64,000 nt of DNA. Origin: Centroscyllium fabricii (taxonomy: Eukaryota). The stretch is from NCBI GenBank assembly GCA_051313645.2, contig JBNRSN020000194.1, positions 248,001 to 312,000 on the forward strand, given 5' to 3'. This document shows, piece by piece, positions 24,001 to 45,936 of this stretch. The notes beneath the pieces are model-generated. The model was not told where the DNA came from. It made no database searches and saw only the letters and a list, made by a program, of their open reading frames with translations. Positions within the stretch are counted from its first letter, which is position 1, and each line of letters begins with the position of its first letter. The position numbers were made by a program, and so were the translations under genes.

Positions 24001-25428
24001 ACATAGCACTCGCCCATGACTGAGAATACTCAGAGCACCCGCCCCTGACTGAATATACTGAGAGCACCCGCCCCTGATTGAGAATACTCGGAGCACCCGC
24101 CCCTGACTGAGAATACTCGGAGCACCCGCCCGTGAGTTAGAATAATCGGAGCACCCGCCCCTGACTGAGGATACTCAGAGCACCCACCCCTGACTGAGAA
24201 TACAGAGAGCACCCGCACCTGACTGAGAATACTGAGAGCACCCGCCCCTGACTGAGAATACTGTGAGCACCCGCCCCTGACTGAGAATACTCGGAGCACC
24301 CACCCCTGACTTGAATACTCGGAGCTCCCGCCCCTGACTCAGAATACTGAGAGCATCCGCACCTGACTGATACTACTCGGAGCACCCGCGCCTGACTGAG
24401 AATACCTGGGGCACCCGCCCATAACTGAGAATACTTGGAGTACCAGCCCCTGACTGAGAATACTCGGAGGACTCGCCTCGGACTGAGAATATTCGGAGCA
24501 CTCGCCCATGACTGAAAATGTTCGGAGCCCCTGCCCCTGACTGAGAATACTCGGAGCACACACCTCTGACTGAGAATACTCAGAGTACCCGCCCCTGACT
24601 CAGAATACTGAGTGCACCCGTCCCTGACTGAGAATACTTGGAGCACCCGCACCTGACTGAGAATACTGAGAGCACTCGCCCCTGACTGAGAATACTGAGA
24701 GCACCCGCCCATGACTGAGAATACTCAGAGCACTCGCCTCTGACTGAGAATACTCTGAGTACCCGCCCCTGACTGAGAATACTTGGAGCACCCACCCCTG
24801 ACTAAGAATACCTGGAGCACCCGCCACTGACTGAGAATACTTGGAGCACCCACCTCTGACTAAGAATACCTGGAGCACCCGCCACTGACTGAGAATCCTC
24901 GGAGCACCCACCCCTGACTGAGAATACTCGGAGCACCCGCCCCTGACTTGAATACTCGGAGCTCCCGCCTCTGACTCAGAATACTGAGAGCATCCGCACC
25001 TGACTGATACTACTCGGAGCACCCGCGCCTAACTGAGAAAACCTGGGGCACCCGGCGTGACTGAGAATACTCGGAGCACCCGCCCCTGACTGAGAATACT
25101 CGGAGCTCCTGCCCCTGTATGAGTATACTCGGAGCACCCGCCCCTGACTGAGAATACTCGGAGCACACACACCCCTGACTGAGAATACTTGGAGCACCCG
25201 CCCCTGACTGAGAATATTCGGAGCACTCGCCCCTGACTGATAATACTGAGAGCACCCGCCCCTGACTGAGGATACTCAGAGCACCCACCCCTGACTGAGA
25301 ATACTGAGTGCACCCGCACCTGACTGAGAATACTGAGAGCACCCGCCCCTGACTGAGAATACTGAGAGCACCCGCCCCAGACTGAGAATACTGAGAGCAC
25401 CCGCCACTGACTGAGAATACTGTGAGCA
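1..25428. repeat. 29-bp tandem satellite array, left block
   Basis: Head-to-tail copies of GAGCACCCGCCCCTGACTGAGAATACTCG with recurring diagnostic variants such as TACCTGGGGCACCCGGCG and CCCCTTACTGAGAATACTCGGATCACAC. Confidence 0.98.
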
Positions 25429-25707
25429 TGTGGTAACCCATAATGTTATGTATACCACTGTATTCTTGTTGTCAATTATTGGCTGTGTATATGTGTTATA
25501 CAGCCCTGTAACACTGTTGGGAGCCAGGTCAGCCACACCTCTAACTCCTCCCCCAGGTGAGGCCTTTATAGGTGGAGACTGACTGAGGCTCCCTCATTCC
25601 TGCTTAGATGTTCGTTCGGAGGGTAGCTCCTAAGTAAGTGATTAAAAGCCTATAGTTACGGTAACTACTCGTTGAGTCTTTTAATCTGAGATATTGACGA
25701 TACGTCA
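25429..25707 (+). repeat. 5' LTR of the gypsy element
   Basis: TGTGGTAACC...TACGTCA; TTTATA at 25565-25570, ATTAAA at 25641-25646; 10 mismatches versus 30029-30307 by manual count. Confidence 0.96.
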
Positions 25708-25732
25708 ATTTTAATCACTTAAAAGTTTTAAA

Positions 25733-28700
25733 ATGGAGAGCGGTGCAGTAAAGCTAGAAAAGCTGGTCATCAGTCCACAGGACCCTGCCGCCGCCACCAT
25801 GTTCGAACACTGGTTCGGTCTCCTGGAGGCCTATATGGACGCCGCCATAGCTACAACCGACGGGAACAAGCTACAGGTTCTCCGGTCCAGGATCTCCAGC
25901 CGAGTATTCTCCCTCATCCGAGACGCCAAAACCTACCCAGGGGCAGTGGAAAAGCTGAGGAAATGCTACGAGCGCCCGGTCCATTCGGTCTATGCTAGAC
26001 ATGTGCTCGAGACCAGACCACAACTACCGGGTGAGACTAATGATCAATTTGAGCAAGCGCTCCAGGCCCTGGTACGGGTCTGTGGCTGCCAAGCCCGGAC
26101 AGCAGAAGAGGAGGCGAACCTCCTCGTCCGAGCGCATATGTAACTGGACTAAGGTGCGTGGAGGCCCGCCAGAGGCTGCTGGAAAAAGACACTTTGTCCC
26201 TCGAAGACGCGATTGCTATATCTAACTCCGTGGAAGGAGCACGCAAAAAACTACAAGCTTACAGTGGCACAAACCCGCAGGCCGACGACATGTGGGCCAC
26301 GCCACAACGGACCCAGGCCTGGGCAGCGCCACAATGGGTCGAGACTCCCACGATGGCTGCGACAGCCACAGAAGACAAACGCTGCTACTTCTGTAGCCAG
26401 GGACTGCACCCGAGAGCGTGATGCCCAGCAAGGACCGCGACCTGTGAGAGGTGCGCCAAGAAGGGACATTATGCAAAGGCTTGCAGATCAGCACCAACAG
26501 CACCCAACTCCAGGTACAACAGCGCAGCCTGTGAAAGCGACAGACCTTATGTAAGCTGCAATAGCAGCGTGATGCAGCGACGGTCCGGGGGTAGAAGGGA
26601 AGCGCCCCCAGCTCCCACGCCGATGCGGCAAAGGCCGGCCAAGCGCGACCCCCCAATGCCAGCAGCAGACCCAATGCGGCCGGCTGCGTGCGAATCACGG
26701 GCACCGCCAACCCGACCACCGCGGCTCGCTGCGTGCGAACCACGGGCACCGCCAACCCAGTCACCACGGCCCGCTGCGTGCGAACCACGGGCGCTGCCAG
26801 CATGCTCACAGCGGTCAGCCGCGTGCGAACCACGGGCGCCGCCATCTCGACCCCAGCGGCCCAGCATGTGCGACCCGTCGGCGCCGCCATTTTGTCCCCA
26901 GGGCCCCACCATGTGCGAGCCAGGGGCGCCGCCATTTTGTCTACAGGGCCCCACCATGTGCGAGCCAGGGGCGACGCCATTTTGTCTACAGGGCCCCACC
27001 ATGTGCGAGCCAGGGGCGCCGCCATTTTGTATACAGCCCCAACCAGCAGGGGGCCCACACACACAGAAGCACACGTCTGCTCCAGCCATACCTAGAGTGT
27101 ACCAGGACAGGCCACACACCCTGTCTAACTCGATAATGCCTATCAAAATAAACGGCTATACTACTAATTGCCTATTTGACACTGGAAGCACGGAGAGCTT
27201 TGTGCACCCCGATACAGTGCAGCGCTGCGGACTGCAGATCCTGCCCACAAACTACCAAGTCTCCCTTGCTTCAAAGTCCCACACCGCGGACGTCACCGGC
27301 TACTGCTCCGTCACGCTCACAGTCAAGGGGTGCGTGTACCGTAATTTTAAATTGTACACCCTCCAGCAGTTGTGCGCCCCAGCCTTACTAGGTCTGGATT
27401 TCCAGTGCCACCTCAAGAGCGTGACAATGGATTTCGGCGGGACTTTGCCCCCCCTCACCGTCAGTAGCCGGGACAGTCCCTTCCCAAAGCGGAGCCCGGC
27501 CTGCGGCCTCTCCACCCTGAAAATCGACCCCCCCTCACTGTTCGCCAACCTCGACCCCAAGTGCAAACCTATTGCTACCAAGAGTCGGCGGTACAGTGTG
27601 GGGGATCGCACGTTTATCAGGTCGGAGGTCGGGCGGATGCTGAAGGAGGGGATAATTGAAGCCAGCACCAGCCCCTGGCGCGCCCAGGTTATTGTGGTAA
27701 AGTCTGGCGAGAAACAACGGCTGGTGATCAATTACAGCCAGACCATCAACCGCTACACCGGGCTCGACGCCTACCCCCATCCCCGCATCTCGGAAATGGT
27801 CAATCAGATCGCCCAGTATAAGGTGTTCTCCATGATCGACCTTAAGTCAGCGTATCACCAACTCCCAATCCGGAAAGCCGACCGCCCCTACACCGCCTTC
27901 GAGGCGAACAGTCGGCTCTACCACTTCCTCCGGGTCCCCTTCGGCGTGCCCAATGGAGTGTCAGTGTTCCAGTGGGAGATGGACCGCATGGTTGACCAGA
28001 ACGAGTTGCAGGCCACCTTCCCCTACCTGGACAACGTGACCATCTGCGGCCACGACCAACAGGACCACGATGCCAATCTGGCCAAATTTCTCGACACGGC
28101 GGATAAGCTGGACCTCACGTATAACAAAGACAAATGTGTCTTTAATACAGACCGGTTCGCCATCCTCGGATACGTGGTGGAGAACGGAGTCCTCGGCCCC
28201 GACCCACAGCGTATGCGACCCCTACAAGAACTGCCCCTACCTCAAGCCTTGAGGAGATGCCTAGGATTTTTCTCCTATTACGCACAATGGGTCCCACAAT
28301 TCGTGGACAAGGCTAGACCACTCCTCAAGGCTGCCATTTACCCCCTTTCGGTAGAAGCCCAAACGGCATTCGCCCGGATAAAGGAAGACATCATCAAGGC
28401 TACCATGCTCGCTGTTGATGAATCCATTCCCTTCCAGGTGGAGAGCGACGCTTCGGACTTCGCCCTTGCTGCCATCCTGAATCAGGCAGGCAGGCCCGTA
28501 GCGTTTTTCTCCCGCACGCTACAGGGACCCGAAACTCACCACTCAGCAGTGGAAAAGGAGGCCCAGGCCATCGTGGAGGCCATGCGCTACTGGCATCATT
28601 ACCTGGCCGGTAAGCGTTTTACCCTTCTCACCGACCAACGGTCGGTGGCGTTTATGTTTAATAATAAACAGTAGGGTAAGATCAAGAATGATAAGATCCT

Positions 28701-30027
28701 GCGGTGGCGGATCGAACTCCCGACTTACGAGTATGACATTCTTTACCGACCAGGCAAACTCAATGAACCCCCGGACGCACTGTCCAGGGGAACGTGCGCC
28801 AGTGCCCAGCTAGACCAGCTGAAGGACCTCCACGACCGCCTTTGCCACCCGGGTGTCACCAGACTCGCCCACTTCATTAGATCCCGTAGCCTCCCCTACT
28901 CCATCACGGAGATCAAGGCTATGACCCGAGAGTGCCCTGTTTGCGCCGAGTGCAAACCCCAATTTTTCCGGCCAGACACGGTGCACCTCATCAAGGCCAC
29001 CCGCCCCTTTGAACGTCTCAGCATGGACTTCAAAGGCCCCCTCCCCACCACCGACCGCAACTCATACTTCCTCACGGTCGTAGATGAGTTCTCCCGTTTC
29101 CCCTTCACCTTCCCCTGCGCAGATATGACAAGCGCAACGGTGATAAAACACTTCACCACGCTGTTTGCCATCTTCGGTCTCCCTAGCTACATCCATAGCG
29201 ACCGGGGGTCATCGTTCATGAGCGATGAACTGCGTCAGTTTCTGCTCCAGAAAGGGGTTGCCACGAGCAGAACGACCAGTTATAACCCCCGGGGGAACGG
29301 CCAGGTAGAAAGGGAGAATAGCATCATCTGGAAGGCGGTCACCCTGGCCCTGAAGTCCAGAGGCCTTCCAGTGGCCCATTGGCAGGCAGTGCTCCCAGAC
29401 ACGCTGCATTCTATACGCTCTCTCCTATGTACGGCCACTATCGCAACTCCTCATGATTTGATTTTTGCTTTTCCCAGGAAGTCAACTTCGGGGACAGCTC
29501 TTCTTCCATGGCTCACGACATCGGGGCTGGTCTTCCTTAGAAGACACGTTCGGGGCCACAAGGCCGACCCCCTGGTGGACAAGGTGCAGCTCCTGCATGC
29601 GAACATGCAATACGCATTCGTGCAGTTCCCGGACGGGCGTGAGGACACCGTATCTATCAGGGACCTGGCGCCCGCAGGTAGCACCGCAGAGCCCCTGGTC
29701 GGTCAGCAGGCCGCCCAGCCACAGTATCCAGAACACCCCCTACACCTACAATGGCCTCCGAGTTTTCCAGAGCCCCAGCTGTGGCCACTCCAGGACCACC
29801 ACTCCGATAGCTCGGACCAGCGGAGACCATCGCCACCTGAAACCAGGGCACCGGGGCAACGGTCACCACCAGCGGACTCGAGCAGCACGGACCATGAGGG
29901 GTCATCACCGGAACTCCGGCGGTCCTCCAGGCTGGCACGACCACCGGATAAGTTGATATTGAACTGCTCGGTCCATTCACCCGGGTCCATTCACCCCCCT
30001 GAACTTAAATTTTTCAAGAAGGGGTGA
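25733..30027 (+). pseudogene. gag-pol: Disrupted gag-pol polyprotein (Gag with two Cys/His knuckles, aspartic protease, RT, RNase H, integrase)
   Basis: One frameshift near 26131, then a single frame with in-frame stops at 26419-26421 and 28672-28674. Motifs: CYFCSQGLHPRA*C and CERCAKKGHYAKAC, LFDTGSTES, DLKSAYHQL, VPFG, YLDN, ESDASDF/EKEA/TDQRS, LHDRLCHPG..CPVC, MDFKGP/SDRG/QVERE. Confidence 0.93.
26675..27035 (+). repeat. 45-bp (15-aa) in-frame tandem repeat, about 8 units, between the Gag knuckles and the protease
   Basis: Units in 45-bp register at 26683, 26728, 26773, 26818, and near-identical units at 26901, 26946, 26991; translation AACEPRAPP.../PTMCEPGAPPFCLQG. Confidence 0.9.
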
Positions 30028-30028
30028 A
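30016..30028 (+). promoter_or_regulatory. Polypurine tract of the gypsy element
   Basis: AAGAAGGGGTGAA directly before the TG of the 3' LTR. Confidence 0.85.
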
Positions 30029-30307
30029 TGTGGTAACCCATAATGTTATGTATACCACTGTATTCTTGTTGCCAATATTTGGCTGAGTATATGTGCTACA
30101 CAGCCCTGTAACACTGTCGGGAGCCAGGTCAGCCACACCTCTAACTCCTCCCCCAGGTGAGGCCTTTATAAGTGGAGACTGACTGAGGCTCCCTCATTCC
30201 TGCTTAGATGCTCGTTCGGAGGGTAGCTCCTAAGTAAGTGATTAAAAGCCTATAGTTACGGTAACTACTCGTTGAGTCTTTTAATCCGAGATATTGACGA
30301 TACGTCA
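30029..30307 (+). repeat. 3' LTR of the gypsy element
   Basis: Direct repeat of 25429-25707 at offset 4600, followed by TSD GAGCA. Confidence 0.96.
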
Positions 30308-37340: not shown

Positions 37341-38770
37341 TGTAAGATTTGAGCTGATGTTTCCCGGATCCAGAACTACTATCAACACTTTTATAACACA
37401 GAACTGCAAGCAACATGCTTTTGTTAAAACCGATAATGTGGGGGCACCCTGGGTACGGAGATGTGGCTCTGTACCAGGGAAAAAGGACTATAGCCAGAGA
37501 CTTTTAAAAGAAAACCAGACACAAGCAGGGGCCACAAAATGGCTTCGCCGACCACGTGATCAGCCTGGCAGAGTGAAACTAAAACAGCCCCCCCCACACA
37601 CATTTTTCTGCAAACTCATGACCAGATAGACTTTGGATATTGGTCATGAATAGCCCACATAACGAGATCGAGTCCCCAGACTGGGAGGCGCCGGTGTCCA
37701 GCAGATGGACAAGGGGCACCGAGGTAACCTCGTCAAGTAAAACAAAAGGCCCATAGAAACCCGAGGGCAGGTAATGGGAAAAAGCTTATGCACAGAGATC
37801 GCTTAACAGAAAAAACGTTTACAGGTGGTCAGGAGATTATCGGTCTGTTAAGCGACCATGAGAACAGAAAAGAACAGATCTAACCTCACTTAAAGACAAA
37901 AGGACACTATAGATCTGGCACGCAGATAAGCGCGAGGTGCGGGGGTATAACGGCCAGGGTTTTAAACTGAAGGCAGAAGGAACAGGCTCGGAGAGGGAGA
38001 GAGAGGTTCGGACAGAGGGGAACTGATGAGCTAGAAAGCAAACAGACTGACGAACTGGAGAACGAGAGCTCAAGCAAAGAGCTGATGGCAGTTGATAGCC
38101 AGAAAGAGTAACAGTGTCGTTTTAAAGTGAGAGCTGGAGAGAAGCAGCAGAGGTCTGAACCAGAAAGAAAGGTGCACTCGATTTAGAGATCAGCTAGAAA
38201 GTGCTTGCCTGCATCAGAAGTCGGTGCCAGGAAGCCAGGAAGGCGGAAGAGAGAGAGAGAGAGAGAGCCCCTTCCACAGCTACCTAATCGAAGGACGAAG
38301 GAGGTGCAACACAACGAACCCCGAACCCCCCCAGTAAACATAGCCCATGGTGAGTATGGTGTTCCGCTTCTGCACGTCTGGACATAGGATAGTGTAGGAA
38401 GTGGAGGGTGGGTGTCGTGGAAGCATATTGGGGTGTAGCTGTTTAATGTTTGCCCAATTTTACGTTGTATCGTACCCTCTCCATCCTGTTTTTAATTGAT
38501 TAACGTTTGGTTCTACTGTTGTAATAGTTGAATGTGTAATAAAGGACTGTGTTTTAAACATCACATCTCTGGTCTCTTGGAACTCTGTTCTGGCAGGAAT
38601 TACCTACACTATCACAACTCCTGTACATAAGCCCAGTGTCGAGAACCGTAGGGGGGAGCGTTTCAGACCGCTCACAGGGACCCGGTGTGCGAGGCCTGGT
38701 CGCGGGACCAAGGCAAGGCGCAGGGACTCTAGGTCGAGCCTGGAGAAGGCCGGCTGCCAAACCCCTTACA
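37341..38770 (+). repeat. 5' LTR (1430 bp)
   Basis: Terminal inverted TGTAAG/CTTACA; TATAA 37946-37950; (GA)n run near 38248-38267; AATAAA 38538-38543. Confidence 0.97.
38347..38355 (+). promoter_or_regulatory. Candidate start codon plus splice donor, ATG|GTGAGT, in the LTR
   Basis: Near-consensus U1 donor directly after an ATG; in phase with a candidate acceptor at 41714. Confidence 0.65.
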
Positions 38771-38775
38771 GATTT

Positions 38776-38793
38776 TGGCGACCCAGATGGGAC
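38776..38793 (+). promoter_or_regulatory. Primer-binding site, tRNA-Arg (CCG-type)
   Basis: TGGCGACCCAGATGGGAC, 5 nt after the LTR, is the reverse complement of GTCCCATCTGGGTCGCCA, which I recall as the 3' end of a vertebrate tRNA-Arg(CCG); not checked against a database. Confidence 0.8.
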
Positions 38794-40541
38794 ACTGGCA
38801 ACAGGATGATAGTGTGCCAGAAACGGTTGTAAGAACTAGGGATATGATGGATGAACGCATGGCCGACTATGTGTTCAGCAAGGTCAATCTGACCAAGTCA
38901 TGGATGTGTGAGTTGCTGGAAGACAAGCGCCCACTGGATGCAGCGATCCGGTGGACGTCCAGCAAAGCACACAAGAAAGTGGTAGAAAAGGCCGTCTGGC
39001 TGTCGTGCTACAAGAAGCAGGTCCAGCTCCTGGACCGTGTAGTGGCAGCGCAGGCAGCCCAGATAGGGAACCTCCGTGAGGAGGTGAGGGAAAAGGCTGA
39101 GGGAGGGCTCCAGTTGATCGAGGCCCTGGACTCCTCGAACAAGGAGCGCCGGGTTTTGGTCAACCGATATGAGGCCAAGGTTGAACTGTTGGGGTGCCAG
39201 ATCACTGACGCTAAGCTCAGTGAGGGCGCAATTAGGCAGCGGTGTGCCGGCCTAGACCAACAGTTGGAGGCCACAGGGGAGACTCTCCGGGGGGTTAAAG
39301 CAGCCTATAAAATGGCTTTGGAGGATCGGTCCGAAGGGGCCGATCACGGGGCTTGTAGGGAGGAGATCGAAAGCCTGCGCAGCGCCTTAGATAGGGCTAG
39401 TGGGTTGGTCTGCCTTATGAACCCCGCAGCGGGAACATCACTGGCAGCGGCAAGGGTTCCAGCAAGGGGTCCGTGCATGCCCGTGGTGGCTTCGGCCCCC
39501 ACGTATCACGATCCCCCCAGCTATGAGGCTTCCTGGGAGAAGGGGGGCGCTGGGGAGAGTGAGCAGGGGGGGGGACCGGCCAGGGAACCGGCGCAGGCAC
39601 CGATGTGTCCATTGCTGGAGACCAGGCGGGGACCCGACGCAGCGAACGGGGATCCCGGGCCTGTCCAAAGTCAGATTATAGTGCCCCACAGCGCCCAGCA
39701 GTTGAGGTCCATGGTCGGGCAAGTCAAGAAGCTGTCCGAATCGGGGGACCCTTCACTGCATTTTCAGGAGGTTGAGCAGACCGCCGCAATCAATGGTTGC
39801 GACGAAGGGGAGCAGGCGAGGATGCTATTGTTCTCCCTGGACTACTCACTCCTTCAGTGCCTCAGTGATGAGAGCAAACGGGGTACCAGAACCTACGAAC
39901 AGTTAAGGGAAGAGGTTCTGGAGGTTTTAGGCACGGACGATGAGGGTCCATTTGCCCGCTTGGGGAAAACTCTCCAGATGGAGGGAGAACCTCCGAGGGT
40001 TTTTGCGGCGAGACTGTGGCCGGTCTACCAACGTAGCTGCCCGCAGGTCCCGAACCGGGATGCCCTGGTCGGGAATGTTAGGGCGCAGTGGCTTCGGTGC
40101 TTGGTAACGAACAGCCTAGCAGCTGTCCGGGAGCAGGCGAAAGCCTGGTTCGACCCAACGAACACCACGGAGGACGAGGTTTTGGACCGCCTCACCGTGG
40201 GGTATCGGAACACCCGGAGCACCGCCACCAAGTCGGTCAAGGGGAAGGTGCACGTAGCGGAGGCCGTTACATCGGCCCCGAAGGAATGGCGTCAGGAGGG
40301 CAACCCTGCCGCACAGTCTAAGTGTTTTAGGTGCGGTAAGGTGGGTCACTGGAGGAAAGACTGCAGGGTTTTCCCCAAGGAGGTTAGGGCCAACCCCGCT
40401 CCGCGCGCCGAGATAGCCGTTAAGCCCGAAACGTTGGAGTCAATGATCGAGGTGATGCGGTCCCTCATGGAAGCACAAGGGAAGGTTGCAGTCGCCACCG
40501 GCTCCCCGGGTGCGGGGGGGACACCGGACATTCCCCAGTGA
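38787..40541 (+). CDS. gag: Gag-like polyprotein (N-terminal coiled coil, PPxY late motif, capsid-like helical region, CCHC knuckle)
   Basis: Intact ORF of about 584 aa from the first ATG (inside the PBS; alternative ATG at 38844); PPSY at 39513-39524; CFRCGKVGHWRKDC at 40323-40364. Confidence 0.88.
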   Translation: MGHWQQDDSVPETVVRTRDMMDERMADYVFSKVNLTKSWMCELLEDKRPLDAAIRWTSSKAHKKVVEKAVWLSCYKKQVQLLDRVVAAQAAQIGNLREEVREKAEGGLQLIEALDSSNKERRVLVNRYEAKVELLGCQITDAKLSEGAIRQRCAGLDQQLEATGETLRGVKAAYKMALEDRSEGADHGACREEIESLRSALDRASGLVCLMNPAAGTSLAAARVPARGPCMPVVASAPTYHDPPSYEASWEKGGAGESEQGGGPAREPAQAPMCPLLETRRGPDAANGDPGPVQSQIIVPHSAQQLRSMVGQVKKLSESGDPSLHFQEVEQTAAINGCDEGEQARMLLFSLDYSLLQCLSDESKRGTRTYEQLREEVLEVLGTDDEGPFARLGKTLQMEGEPPRVFAARLWPVYQRSCPQVPNRDALVGNVRAQWLRCLVTNSLAAVREQAKAWFDPTNTTEDEVLDRLTVGYRNTRSTATKSVKGKVHVAEAVTSAPKEWRQEGNPAAQSKCFRCGKVGHWRKDCRVFPKEVRANPAPRAEIAVKPETLESMIEVMRSLMEAQGKVAVATGSPGAGGTPDIPQ

Positions 40542-41495
40542 CTGGAGCCCGCGCAGCCTGTCAACCCGGTTCCCTCGGAAAGACGTGCAGAGGAAGAGAC
40601 CTCCGGTAATTTGGAGGACTTCCTGGGGTGCCAGGTTGCAGGAGCTCAGGTCGTGGAACGGGCTTTAAGGAAAGAGAATGACAGGCTAGCGGCAAAAGCT
40701 AGCAGTTTAGAGGAAGAACTCAAGGTTTTTAAAATGCTTCACAGCAGGTGCAAGCTGTTTAGCCTGGAGGCAAAAACCCAGGCAGCTGAAGTGAAAAGGG
40801 AGTTTAAAACCTCAAAGGCTGCAACAGGTCAGCGGCAGCAGGTAAAACAGGGGTCAGTCACAGGGGCAAGCCCTGTGGATAGAGAATCACAGCCAAAATT
40901 GTGGAAGGTCACGCAGGTGGGTAAAGCTGCCTGCGTGAGGGGAAAGGAGGAAGACGTTTGCCAGCAATGGAGGGCGTCCCAGTTTGGATGGGACTCAGAC
41001 GAAGACGAGCCTGATCAGCTCGGTCTGGGGCTGAATCTCATGACGGAGGAGTGGGAGTCGGAGGGGGATGACGAGAGCATCCTCGACTCAAGCACCAGGG
41101 AGGCGGGGGTAGCGGGCGGAGACTCACCACCTGTCACAGACAGGGTGAGGTCGGAAGCCGCGGATATACCCAGCCCCAAGGGGGTAGTGCTGGATGAGGA
41201 AGGGCCGGGGTCGGCAGCTGCGGGGGTCACCCGAGCTGCGGCACGGCGGGAACCTGTCCTCAACCGGGCTGCCCAGGGGGCCGTGCCTGAGGTGACTCTC
41301 CGTAGGTCCAGCAGGATACCTCAACTGAGGAAGCTTTGGCCGGAATTGTACGGGACCCCAGCGACAGGCAGTTTGTCGGGTTGGAGAAAGGAAGATGGTC
41401 ACTGGCAGGCAGCCACAGGCTGCGACACTTCAAAGGATGCAGGCAGCGCGGCCAAGCCACAGGCAGCGGCGCGCTGCAGCCTGGATCAGGATTAG
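40542..41495 (+). CDS. ORF2, unknown 317-aa protein in frame with gag behind a single UGA (occupies the pol position)
   Basis: Same frame as gag with no stop from 40542 to the TAG at 41493-41495; heptad-rich segment, acidic tract (WDSDEDEPD, EEWESEGDDES), LRRSSR motif; no pol catalytic motifs. Confidence 0.6.
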   Translation: MEPAQPVNPVPSERRAEEETSGNLEDFLGCQVAGAQVVERALRKENDRLAAKASSLEEELKVFKMLHSRCKLFSLEAKTQAAEVKREFKTSKAATGQRQQVKQGSVTGASPVDRESQPKLWKVTQVGKAACVRGKEEDVCQQWRASQFGWDSDEDEPDQLGLGLNLMTEEWESEGDDESILDSSTREAGVAGGDSPPVTDRVRSEAADIPSPKGVVLDEEGPGSAAAGVTRAAARREPVLNRAAQGAVPEVTLRRSSRIPQLRKLWPELYGTPATGSLSGWRKEDGHWQAATGCDTSKDAGSAAKPQAAARCSLDQD

Positions 41496-41714
41496 CCTGG
41501 CCGCCTTGGAAGGGCGGCGTTGTATGATAGGCTAGGTAGTTTTAAGAAGTTTAGTGGTAAGTTAAGTTATATTTTTACTGGGTTAGGTAAAAGGGGCAAT
41601 GTGTCCAGCGTGCAGATGCGGGGTACGGGCTGGGGTCATCAGACCCAAGCATGGGTCTTTAACACAGCCAAGCGCTCTTGGAGAGGCTGGCTATACCAAC
41701 GTTATCTGTTTCAG

Positions 41715-44087
41715 GAACCAAACGAGGCACTAAGATGGGGAATCATCTTCCTGGCGATCGGATGCGGGTGGGCCTATCGGGGCCGCACCCAGGACATCGT
41801 GGTATACGGATGTTCGGGAAGCACCGCGCCTACCGCGACCGTTGGGACGGGACAACGGACAACCGAAGGAGCTGCCGTTTTCTTCCACCAGGGGCGATGG
41901 CCAGGGTGGCTGGGATCAAACGCTTCTGAGTATCTCGGCACCCCAGGATTTTTCTTCAGGGACACTGAGTTATTGTGCCCAAAGGTGAAGATCATCGCCC
42001 AGAAGACCAGCGTCACGGCCGGCAAGAGGATTTGCCTGAGGTGCACCGGAAAGGTCGACACCCGGTTGAGGTGGTGGCTACGTAAAACCAGCCGGACCAT
42101 GGCCAACTCAACCGTGAATTGGGAAAAGCTGGACAACAACACTCACAGGACAGTCTTTGGGACTAATGAAAGTTTGAGTGTCTGTTGGGACAAGTGGTGG
42201 GAGCCTGATGAGGGAATTTATGTGTGTAGGTGGGGTTCCAGGTATTTGTGCCCCACAGGGAACAGCATATTTTTCCACCAGCAGTGGCAAGATGGTGGTA
42301 AGGGGATGAGGTGGGATGTTAGCTCACAAGCCTGTGGGGTCCCATTTTCCCCGAGCCCAGTTAACGCCACTGAACTCGTCACCCGACCACGCACAACACC
42401 TCCCACACCGAGGCGGGCAGCAGCACAGGAGGGTGGGTGCCCCAAGACTACACGGGGGCCCGAGAATGGCCTGGTATTGATACCAACAGATCAGGTATTA
42501 TACCAGGGGGTGCACTACACGGTGGCCTCGGTGATTTTAAACCTCACCGAGGTAAGGTTGCCGGAGTGGTGCCCCAAGGAGACCGAAAGGTTATATCAGG
42601 TGCTGCTGGCAAATATGTACAGGCAGTTTTACGAACTTGACCTGGCCAGTGTAGACAAGGCAAGCCTGTACCGCCAAGGGCCAGAGACATGGGGCCAAAC
42701 GGGGAGACAAAAGAGGGGTGTAGTGAATGATGTGTTCACGGGCTTTAACACCGGAGCCTCTGTGGTCAACGCTCTCGACACCATGGAGCTGCAGACCCAG
42801 ATAAACGGTTTAAAGTCGCAGTTGAAGGACATCCTCACGGAGGAGAACAATGTCGTCGGGTCGGAGCTCCATGAGGACCAGGCGATGACACTGCACCTGC
42901 GCGAGATAATCGCGTAATTAGAAAGACACGCGAGCACGGTGAACGCTCTGATCAAGGAAGATCGGAACGCTTCTGACCAGGCTGCGCAGAACGAGGTGTG
43001 CGTTCTGTACGGGGCGTGGTTGCTGGGCGAGGGCCGCAGCAACCTTGAGGACCTGAAGCAAGGGTTGGTCCCGTCCTGGATCAGTAACAAACACCTCCAA
43101 GCACTGCAGCCTTTTCAGAACGCGCTTACACCGTGTCAGCTCAGGTTGGCGTCAGAGGCGTACCCTGTTCCCATTGACTGTGGGCGTTCTAATTACACGG
43201 TCATGGGAGTGGTGGTACGGATGCCGGTGTTGGGCAAGACGGCAAGGCCCGCACCGGTATACAGGGTGGAGAACATCGGAGTCATTCAGGGGGGAGTACA
43301 CGTTCGCTACGCAGAGGTCCCACCGTATGTTGTCCGCTGGGAGCAGTTGATGACAGGTACAGACCTCTCGGGGTGCCGGAGCAGGGGAGCACACATAATA
43401 TTGTGTCCCCAGCACTTGAATGTCTTGCGGGTACAGCAGTGTGGGTTCAGGGCTGTTGGCGCGAAGCCTATGAATTGCACTATGGAGGCGATGGCACAGG
43501 ACCATGTCCCTCCACAGGTGGCATACATAGGGGGTGGTACTTACTGTATTACCACTGCAGCGCAACACTACCGACACGGGCAGCATGGCCTATGTCCGGT
43601 GAGTGACAGCAGCTTCTGTTTTAAACCACAGGCAGAGGTTCAAGTGGCACAGCTGCGAATCGTCCCCATACCTGAACCCTCCACGGTTCACATCAGTGTA
43701 AAGGAGAATTTCACCAACCTGCAGCACTTTGTGGCGCATTTTGGGTATGCCATACCCCCTCTCCCCGAACACCTCACAACACTTTTTAAAGCAGTTGCCG
43801 TATCGCAAAAGCATTTTTACACCCTGGAACAGAAGACAGATAAGATTGGGGCAGACATATTGGAGATAGTGGTTCCCCCGTGGTGGGACCTGTTCAATAA
43901 TATAGAAGTCCCATCTTGGGTTAGAATTGCATCACACGTGTTAGTGGTGGTGCAAGCTTTTATAGTGTTCTATTTAATATGTGGACAGTGCAGAGGGAGA
44001 CAGCGGCTTCGCAGCCGGATAGGCAGAGGGGAATGGAGGGACCGGTACGTCAGGGCGGACGAACCGGAGGCAGAGACAAGCTGCTGA
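41715..44087 (+). pseudogene. env: Envelope glycoprotein: signal peptide, Ig-like domain, Pro/Thr linker, furin site, long F1-like fusion subunit, TM; one in-frame TAA
   Basis: Track ORFs 41520-42917 and 42939-44087 share one frame, split by TAA at 42915-42917; hydrophobic WGIIFLAIGCGWAY; RQKR at 42705-42716 then GVVNDVFTGFNTGASVVNAL and heptads; C-terminal VLVVVQAFIVFYLIC; several N-x-S/T sequons. Confidence 0.87.
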
Positions 44088-44496
44088 CATGGGGAAGAAG
44101 TCACCTCCAATTTTACCTCTCTGTGAGAGAGTCTCATTGAAAACACTGTATATATATTTAAGTTTAAGTTTTGAAGGTATTTTCTTTTTGTGGTGTATGT
44201 ATTGATCTTTGTGCCCCAATAAAACGATCACCGACAGGAGGACGGTTGGCGGACGGCATCAGCCGAGGAAAAGGGTGTAAGTTTTGAAAGACGGGCACAA
44301 ATCTGGGGAATGTTTATGTGTATATAGTGACCCGGGAAGGCAGTAATGTATAGGTCGGCCTGAAAGATGGGGACTGTACGTTAAGTACTTGGGCGCTAGT
44401 TTAGGTAAAATAGTGGGGGTCTGGACGTGGACAACCGGGAAAACATAGCTCAACCGTAATTTAATTTGATTGCGACACATTGGGGTGTGTGGAATC

Positions 44497-44509
44497 AAAC
44501 AGGAGGGAC
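44497..44509 (+). promoter_or_regulatory. Polypurine tract of the ERV-like element
   Basis: AAACAGGAGGGAC directly before the TG of the 3' LTR. Confidence 0.8.
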
Positions 44510-45936
44510 TGTAAGATTTGAGCTGATGTTTCCCGGATCCAGAACTACTATCAACACTTTTATAACACAGAACTGCAAGCAACATGCTTTTGTTAAAACC
44601 GATAATGTGGGGGCACCCTGGGTACGGAGATGTGGCTCTGTACCAGGGAAAAAGGACTATAGCCAGAGACTTTTAAAAGAAAACCAGACGCAAGCAGGGG
44701 CCACAAAATGGCTTCGCCGACCACGTGATCAGCCTGGCAGAGTGAAACTAAAACAGCCCCCACACACATTTTTCTGCAAACTCATGACCAGATAGACTTT
44801 GGATATTGGTCATGAATAGCCCACATAACGAGATCGAGTCCCCAGACTGGGAGGCGCCGGTGTCCAGCAGATGGACAAGGGGCACCGAGGTAACCTCGTC
44901 AAGTAAAACAAAAGGCCCATAGAAACCCGAGGGCAGGTAATGGGAAAAAGCTTATGCACAGAGATCGCTTAACAGAAAAAACGTTTACAGGTGGTCAGGA
45001 GATTATCGGTCTGTTAAGCGACCATGAGAACAGAAAAGAACAGATCTAACCTCACTTAAAGACAAAAGGACACTATAGATCTGGCACGCAGATAAGCGCG
45101 AGGTGCGGGGGTATAACGGCCAGGGTTTTAAACTGAAGGCAGAAGGAACAGGCTCGGAGAGGGAGAGAGAGGTTCGGACAGAGGGGAACTGATGAGCTAG
45201 AAAGCAAACAGACTGACGAACTGGAGAACGAGAGCTCAAGCAAAGAGCTGATGGCAGTTGATAGCCAGAAAGAGTAACAGTGTCGTTTTAAAGTGAGAGC
45301 TGGAGAGAAGCAGCAGAGGTCTGAACCAGAAAGAAAGGTGCACTCGATTTAGAGATCAGCTAGAAAGTGCTTGCCTGCATCAGAAGTCGGTGCCAGGAAG
45401 CCAGGAAGGCGGAAGAGAGAGAGAGAGAGAGAGCCCCTTCCACAGCTACCTAATCGAAGGACGAAGGAGGTGCAACACAACGAACCCCGAACCCCCCCAG
45501 TAAACATAGCCCATGGTGAGTATGGTGTTCCGCTTCTGCACGTCTGGACATAGGATAGTGTAGGAAGTGGAGGGTGGGTGTCGTGGAAGCATATTGGGGT
45601 GTAGCTGTTTAATGTTTGCCCAATTTTACGTTGTATCGTACCCTCTCCATCCTGTTTTTAATTGATTAACGTTTGGTTCTACTGTTGTAATAGTTGAATG
45701 TGTAATAAAGGACTGTGTTTTAAACATCACATCTCTGGTCTCTTGGAACTCTGTTCTGGCAGGAATTACCTACACTATCACAACTCCTGTACATAAGCCC
45801 AGTGTCGAGAACCGTAGGGGGGAGCGTTTCGGACCGCTCACAGGGACCCGGTGTGCGAGGCCTGGTCGCGGGACCAAGGCAAGGCGCAGGGACTCTAGGT
45901 CGAGCCTGGAGAAGGCCGGCTGCCAAACCCCTTACA
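44510..45936 (+). repeat. 3' LTR (1427 bp)
   Basis: Direct repeat of 37341-38770; I found 2 substitutions and a 3-bp shorter C run. Confidence 0.97.

Follow-up and report, generated by a model that had tools for sequence, protein, structure and literature searches.

A chimeric open reading frame behind the gag stop codon of a pol-less, lokiretrovirus-like element in Centroscyllium fabricii

A pol-less element with a chimeric frame in the place of pol

The stretch of Centroscyllium fabricii DNA analyzed here (contig JBNRSN020000194.1 of assembly GCA_051313645.2, positions 248,001 to 312,000; 64,000 nucleotides, hereafter the window) is a 29-bp satellite array that carries two long terminal repeat (LTR) insertions, in a genome of 7.2 Gb. 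One of them, at 37341-45936, is a pol-less, lokiretrovirus-like element with the order gag, TGA, an open reading frame of 317 codons (ORF2) and env, enclosed by a 4-bp target duplication. Sequence comparison indicates that ORF2 is almost certainly a chimera of the start of pol, a copy of the Gag coiled coil, a stub of an older integrase tail and the integrase tail of the current helper, and a codon model indicates that the coiled-coil copy is under purifying selection in the gag frame. The interpretation we favor, which we consider to have about an even chance of being right, is that of a helper-dependent satellite whose minor readthrough Gag-ORF2 fusion favors its own replication, likely in cis. 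The features on which this interpretation draws are as follows.

40539-40541, forward strand: TGA gag stop in a UGA-C context, located where pol-bearing relatives have their gag/pol stop
40542-40613, forward strand: ORF2 codons 1-24, assigned to the pol start, where a +1/-1 shift of register is compensated; TTG at codon 24
40611-40727, forward strand: ORF2 codons 24-62, assigned by profile homology as a 39-codon copy of the Gag N-terminal coiled coil, with a signal of purifying selection
40728-40846, forward strand: ORF2 codons 63-102, assigned to a stub of an older integrase tail, from the end of the GPY/F-SH3 region onward
40847-41495, forward strand: ORF2 codons 103-317 and stop, assigned to the C-terminal tail of the current helper's integrase, with an acidic tract and LRRSSR at 41298-41315
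40470-40846, forward strand: segment of about 375 nt that the current helper does not share, made up of the gag end, the stop and ORF2 codons 1-102
39183-39314, forward strand: Gag coiled-coil stretch, the source type of the ORF2 duplication, with homology to the ORF2 coiled coil
40591-40624, forward strand: hairpin; its 5-bp core is complete in 25 of the 29 pol-less rows, against 1 of the 9 rows with pol

Composition and origin of ORF2

The sequence CAG-TGA-CTG-G, to which the initial annotation had drawn attention, is present at 40536-40545, and the gag-frame ORF behind it runs from stop to stop at 40542-41495. The predicted helix, the acidic tract with its tryptophan and the LRRSSR motif are also found as described, the motif recurring in the integrase of the gypsy element of the window. 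The label of an unknown ORF has to be given up, since all parts of ORF2 trace to the element's own pol or gag. At its start, column identity to pol is 80% in register over the first 33 nt, followed by a scrambled block, 81% at +1, and 83% once back in register. Of 11 pol-bearing loci searched with a profile of codons 24-66, 8 give a match to the coiled coil of gag (independent E-values from 1.5e-6 to 0.02); two of the three missed loci are without a gag N-terminus, and the third (L219) has one. No reversed control matched, a DNA profile finds the same places, and the structure model of ORF2 is one long single helix.

The rest of the element resembles that of a pol-bearing sister family. The 215 codons of the ORF2 tail match the sister's integrase tail at 98-99% DNA identity (in one locus, L093, LRMSSR stands in place of LRRSSR). 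Identity is 97-99% between the segment 40847-44600 and the end of pol plus env in the sister, and about 97% between the window gag, up to about 40470, and the gag of pol-bearing copies. All joins within ORF2 are in frame, and of the 85 copies covered 77 have neither a stop nor a frameshift in ORF2.

The sole ORF2 relative from the protein-database search is an integrase C-terminus, whose N-terminal part is the GPY/F-SH3 region; it led to the sister family. Pfam gives ORF2 only a weak CvfB_WH match, the alignment search among longer proteins finds no relative, the 50%-representative search returns one match, to a spurious tandem-repeat protein, and the ESM Atlas yields only matches under 0.9. 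A foreign origin was rejected, given that every part derives from gag or pol and that these searches offer no foreign source. Identity with the loki 'smc' gene was likewise rejected, smc lying upstream of gag in the labels of PMC7947760, as far as its accessible sections go.

An inherited gag/pol junction

The TGA is kept in 30 of 30 best matches, in all 86 sampled copies (the first 30, and 56 of the next 70, among 216 exact ORF2 21-mer matches) and in 204 of the 205 loci across the genome that match with exact flanks. These counts rule out simple decay of a sense codon, the explanation that the initial annotation had itself set beforehand against its proposal. The pol-less family is young, its copies differing from the window by 0.7-2.8% in ORF2, and conservation of the TGA within it alone therefore shows inheritance and not selection. 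Among older pol-less copies the TGA is found in 24 of 28, the other four being single decayed copies. One contig of an older-lineage copy from a second organism (D), over window positions 40540-40639, has an apparent sense codon replacing the TGA; this is a single contig.

The layout of the sister family is gag-TGA-pol-env, with a pol of 1442 aa that comprises protease (PR), reverse transcriptase (RT), tether, RNase H and integrase (IN) domains. Twenty fetched sister copies, picked for having a long pol frame, all begin that frame immediately behind the gag stop; in 19 of the 20 it measures 1442 aa. TGA-C stands at this junction in 38 of 39 matched sister copies and, with all lineages taken together, in 8 of the 9 pol-bearing rows. 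On this alignment, the window TGA is the gag/pol junction inherited from the pol-bearing sister family. Because pol lies in frame directly behind the same TGA-C, expression of the sister's Pol most likely needs UGA readthrough. The same arrangement, together with a codon 24 that reads TTG here and ATG in older lineages, suggests that UGA readthrough probably yields a Gag-ORF2 fusion. Readthrough into ORF2, as originally proposed, thus remains plausible, with a conserved stop at a real gag/pol junction; the element is lokiretrovirus-like and not a gamma- or epsilonretrovirus.

The hairpin was correctly read from the sequence, and its pairings AGGAAG/CTTCCT and CCTCCGG/TTGGAGG are confirmed. Fold z-scores are -2.4 for a 45-nt window picked post hoc, -2.65 for 40530-40660 and -1.2 for 40542-40640. 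Covariation in the region is nil (term -0.16; double change in 2 of 26 pairs), for which reason a conserved RNA structure at the junction was rejected, and the matching sister region folds no better than shuffles (z of +1.6 and +0.4, in folding without pseudoknots). As it lies 49 nt past the stop, shows no covariation and is missing from the pol-bearing copies that need readthrough, the hairpin is unlikely to be the readthrough stimulator of the family; it may have a role specific to the satellite.

Purifying selection on the coiled-coil copy

Selection was assessed on 35 natural copies with a codon model that fits separate omega values to internal and terminal branches, in place of NG86, whose within-family gag control was noisy (saturated or misaligned). 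Over codons 1-85 omega is 0.42 on internal and 0.84 on terminal branches (p=0.002), compared with 0.10 and 0.40 in the gag control. The contrast is sharpest in codons 24-62 (0.31 versus 1.09, p=0.0002) and continues in codons 63-85 (0.42 versus 0.85, p=0.05). The signal is specific to the frame: in the other sense frames internal omega is 2.9 and 2.6 and stop cells number 135 and 91, compared with 4 in the gag frame, and the codon 24-62 signal is mirrored solely in the antisense frame with the same third positions. On the stem of the window family codons 24-62 have an omega of 0.38 (p=0.04 against 1), and organism D differs from the window family in these codons by 7 silent and 3 replacement changes (P about 0.04, for displayed rows from a partial table with mixed contigs). 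By the codon model, then, the Gag coiled-coil copy in ORF2 is under purifying selection in the gag frame.

These values bear on the reading of ORF2 as a neutral recombination scar, with the stop and open frame as inherited leftovers. Every part does come from gag or pol, 215 of the 317 codons owe their openness to having come recently from the helper, and young copies show no constraint; the coiled-coil copy has nevertheless stayed open, with frame-specific selection, through nucleotide divergence of about 30% and in the company of five lineages of helper. The scar reading is largely disfavored, and we regard it as improbable. The neutral or frameshifted ORF2 that had been named in advance as the adverse outcome was not borne out: 77 of 85 frames are open and codons 24-62 are selected, whereas the tail is without selection in young copies.

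Several observations weigh against the favored interpretation and are gathered here. Codons 1-23 show no difference between internal and terminal branches (omega 0.55 and 0.59), and the selection signal begins at codon 24, which is ATG in 27 of 29 aligned pol-less rows. Over 84 codons the stem of the window family has an omega of 0.77 (p=0.45). Shared non-CpG variants among the 86 young copies number, as replacement to silent, 4:0 in codons 24-62, 5:0 in codons 63-102, 26:3 in the tail and 30:17 in gag; they give no purifying selection in ORF2, the coiled-coil counts being small. Uncorrected NG86 between families is 0.46 (confidence interval 0.27-0.78), against a singleton baseline of about 0.72-0.78. 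The context of the stop is UGA-CUG and not the optimal UGA-CUA(G), and what the coiled coil binds is a guess.

The main rival to a readthrough fusion is initiation at codon 24, with ORF2 encoding a small accessory protein of its own, translated from a message that is spliced or allows reinitiation, and the TTG of the window family marking weak or recently lost expression. We consider this unlikely, although the onset of the selection signal, the ATG frequency just given, with a strong context in older lineages, and the unconstrained young copies of the window family all fit it. The codon-24 ATG is inherited from pol, where 7 of 9 rows have it, codons 1-23 remain open with the +1/-1 shift compensated upstream of codon 24, and TTG occupies this position in 86 of 86 copies, yet the family stem and organism D suggest constraint.

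Less probable still is that the open frame serves the RNA, readthrough ribosomes shortening the effective 3' untranslated region and guarding the genomic RNA from nonsense-mediated decay (NMD), with a protein that is merely harmless. Readthrough elements inhibit NMD in dependence on the distance to the RNA end, according to the accessible part of PMC5360307, and both the in-frame joins and a tail that drifts in sequence but remains open would agree with such a role. NMD protection would account for the open frame and not for local constraint; an omega of 0.3 limited to the coiled coil is not what it predicts.

The tail of ORF2 offers a further candidate for the working part, its acidic tract and RRSSR motif acting in nuclear or chromatin targeting. 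Of the rows scanned, many of them broken or tail-less, 14 of the 23 without pol and 2 of the 9 with pol have a motif resembling RRS.R.P.PRK.W. The tail is regularly replaced by that of the helper, in which selection could account for the motif, and its shared variants in young pol-less copies are 26 replacement to 3 silent; lacking the integrase core, it would also have no evident link to the integration complex. ORF2 tail sequence, including LRRSSR, is clearly unconstrained among young pol-less copies. The targeting role first suggested for ORF2 is accordingly not upheld, LRRSSR deriving from the helper integrase tail; we judge the tail reading very improbable, and the integrase tail is likely a passenger. 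In older, otherwise diverged integrase tails the RRS.R.P.PRK.W-like motif (window 41298-41339) persists. It may resemble the CENP-C motif, although the titles and abstracts searched hold nothing that links the two.

Recurrence beside divergent pol-bearing lineages

The gag-TGA-ORF2-env layout is found beside five divergent pol-bearing lineages in the genome. With a divergent Gag query and an older ORF2 query, the latter scored for 150 of 1199 candidates, many decayed pol-less copies of the form gag-TGA-ORF2-tail-env were recovered, in which the protein at the start of ORF2 is about 50% identical to that of the window. One set of 20 fetched loci comprised 10 pol-less loci with ORF2, 9 pol-bearing loci and 1 truncated locus. 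Lokiretrovirus-like elements of the genome (loci L091-L110 and L211-L230) form at least five lineages, one of them very young and with many open pol frames.

The Gag tree, which has 33 rows and excludes four ORF2 loci without usable gag, contains five starred clades, each with both pol-bearing and pol-less rows. Forcing the pol-less rows to be monophyletic costs 1537 log units (p-AU 1e-4; 32 rows, the long-branch L272 removed), so that monophyly is rejected; the pol-less group was defined by anatomy, and the test was made after the first tree had been seen. The ORF2 tree follows the gag tree in part, some rows being discordant. Matches to the helper tail start at lineage-specific, in-frame points, at about nt 199, 210-226 and 306. 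Organism D has the family junction at about 93-95% identity, with contigs that span the crossover at 40847, while organisms C, E and F contribute just 1-7 short contig pieces each.

Proposed mechanism

Readthrough of the inherited UGA would give rise to a minor Gag-ORF2 fusion of about 880-900 aa, which would enter the Gag lattice at the place of Gag-Pol. There the second Gag-like coiled coil likely binds helper Gag or Gag-Pol, so that Pol would be drawn into particles with the satellite RNA; by analogy, a role of the coiled coil in the uptake of helper Gag-Pol is likely. The gain would arise in cis, as reported for mouse IAP 1Δ1. Recombination with co-packaged helper RNA would renew gag, the integrase tail, env and the LTRs, while the junction module stays. 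A complex prediction that paired the coiled coils of Gag and ORF2 scored 0.17, which gives no verdict and is not evidence. A bolder version of this scheme, which we advance only tentatively and hold to be rather doubtful, would see an ancient satellite with a Gag-coiled-coil adaptor made by readthrough at the level of Gag-Pol, which captures helper Gag-Pol and has hopped through at least five helper lineages by recombination with only the module kept.

Genomic setting and remaining features

The further features of the element are listed below.

37341-38770, forward strand: 5' LTR (TG...CA); target duplication CCCT, 4 bp, within the 29-bp satellite array
38776-38793, forward strand: 18-mer resembling a primer-binding site, starting with TGG
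38787-40538, forward strand: gag, with an N-terminal coiled coil, a capsid-like region and a CCHC knuckle at 40320-40367
41616-44087, forward strand: env, with an RQKR cleavage site, a C-terminal hydrophobic stretch and weak similarity to paramyxovirus F
44510-45936, forward strand: 3' LTR, with a short purine tract just upstream

The two LTRs (1430 bp) differ by 2 mismatches and one 3-nt gap. The window copy is without PR, RT, RNase H and the IN core, and it has what marks a non-autonomous endogenous retrovirus (ERV) of the BHIKHARI or ETn/MusD type: no pol, near-identical LTRs, recent spread and a pol-bearing partner that shares cis sequences. Exact 21-mer matches across the genome number 216 for the pol-less and 178 for the pol-bearing form. 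Both LTR elements of the window lie inside the long 29-bp satellite array, and other copies are spread over large contigs. Pairs of pol-less copies about 7.17 kb apart (G000:C1:92183126 with 92190296; C669:551746 with 558910) have a spacing that fits tandem copies sharing one LTR. The second insertion, an unrelated gypsy element at 25428-30307, has 280-bp LTRs that are 96.4% identical, a stop within pol at 28672-28674 and LRRSSR in its integrase tail.

Candidate gag starts are the ATG at 38787 and that at 38847, the latter encoding a Met conserved across families. Pfam recognizes only the CCHC knuckle in Gag, whose closest named relative is from the skate Rhinoraja longicauda (74% identical). 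A G-run at 39566-39575 is a frameshift hotspot in many copies, by slippage or assembly error. In the Gag of one older lineage (P0003), a tandem duplication lies within the N-terminal coiled coil (residues 116-150), adjoining the stretch copied by ORF2. The window env is interrupted at 42915-42917 by a private stop, present in 1 of 71 matched pol-less copies; 17 of 17 matched pol-bearing copies have a sense codon there. The PF00523 match of env (E=0.016) comes from its second half and lies below the cut-off; the RQKR site and the hydrophobic C-terminal stretch are present, the sister env has no PF00523 match, and env has no PDB match and a model pLDDT of 31.

Comparison with known systems

By the dual-RNase-H layout of its sister the element is lokiretrovirus-like. 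Lokiretroviruses, as presented in the accessible sections of PMC7947760, have the order LTR-gag-pol-env, and the PR-RT-tether-RNase H-IN order of the sister agrees with their dual RNase H layout. Their env resembles the F protein of Mononegavirales (PF00523) and has an RXKR site, to which the RQKR site and the below-threshold PF00523 similarity here may correspond. A coiled coil at the gag N-terminus is common to both, their 'smc' lying upstream of gag. RT scores of the sister (about 205 bits for the MuLV type, about 187 for foamy, 144 for Ty3) are compatible with a lokiretrovirus but are not a placement. In the screen of Wang and Han none of 6 chondrichthyan genomes was positive (PMC7947760, same sections), and the present data suggest an abundance of young lokiretrovirus-like elements in a cartilaginous fish, a group negative in that founding screen. 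The words 'readthrough' and 'stop codon' do not occur in the accessible main text of PMC7947760, and the junction described here is a candidate for UGA readthrough between gag and pol in a retrovirus sister clade.

Gamma- and epsilonretroviruses resemble the element in that a stop in frame separates the Gag knuckle from the protease motif, and differ in that this stop is UAG, with a pseudoknot 8 nt downstream in Moloney murine leukemia virus; UGA-CUA and UGA-CGG contexts are described for alphaviruses (accessible text of PMC13517186). The gamma/epsilon signal of a UAG and a near pseudoknot is not found here, where the stop is TGA and the hairpin is 49 nt downstream. The UGA-C(U/A) junction is nearer to the alphavirus type of context, and pseudoknot-free folding of pol-bearing copies reveals no conserved structure.

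Pol-less relatives of lokiretroviruses are already known, and the feature described here is partly ordinary in origin; the ORF2 module behind the stop appears to be new. No description of it was found in the literature searched, which consisted mostly of open papers and left repeat databases outside its scope, and the accessible parts of PMC12440569 and bioRxiv 2023.10.17.562709 contain nothing on it. The BHIKHARI elements of zebrafish (Bik-1 and Bik-2; bioRxiv 2024.03.25.586437, in the portion available) are likewise pol-less loki relatives with a coiled-coil Gag and the need of a partner element, but Bik-1 is one long ORF and Bik-2 is without pol and env, whereas the window element keeps env and a chimeric ORF that appears to be selected.

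Non-autonomous retroelements are usually viewed as short-lived deletion products, whereas here a coding module with signs of selection persists in the slot of pol, and its retention through repeated replacement of its surroundings points to parasitism of the helper at the protein level. A precedent is mouse IAP 1Δ1, described in the available parts of PMC6466679 and PMC7411935 as a helper-dependent ERV in which an internal deletion creates a fusion frame derived from Gag-Pol that reportedly aids retrotransposition in cis. That element is betaretrovirus-like, and its fusion is direct and in frame, through a 1.9-kb deletion. The window element, in contrast, keeps a full Gag, is predicted to make its fusion as a minor readthrough product, carries a duplicated Gag coiled coil and has counterparts beside five helper lineages.

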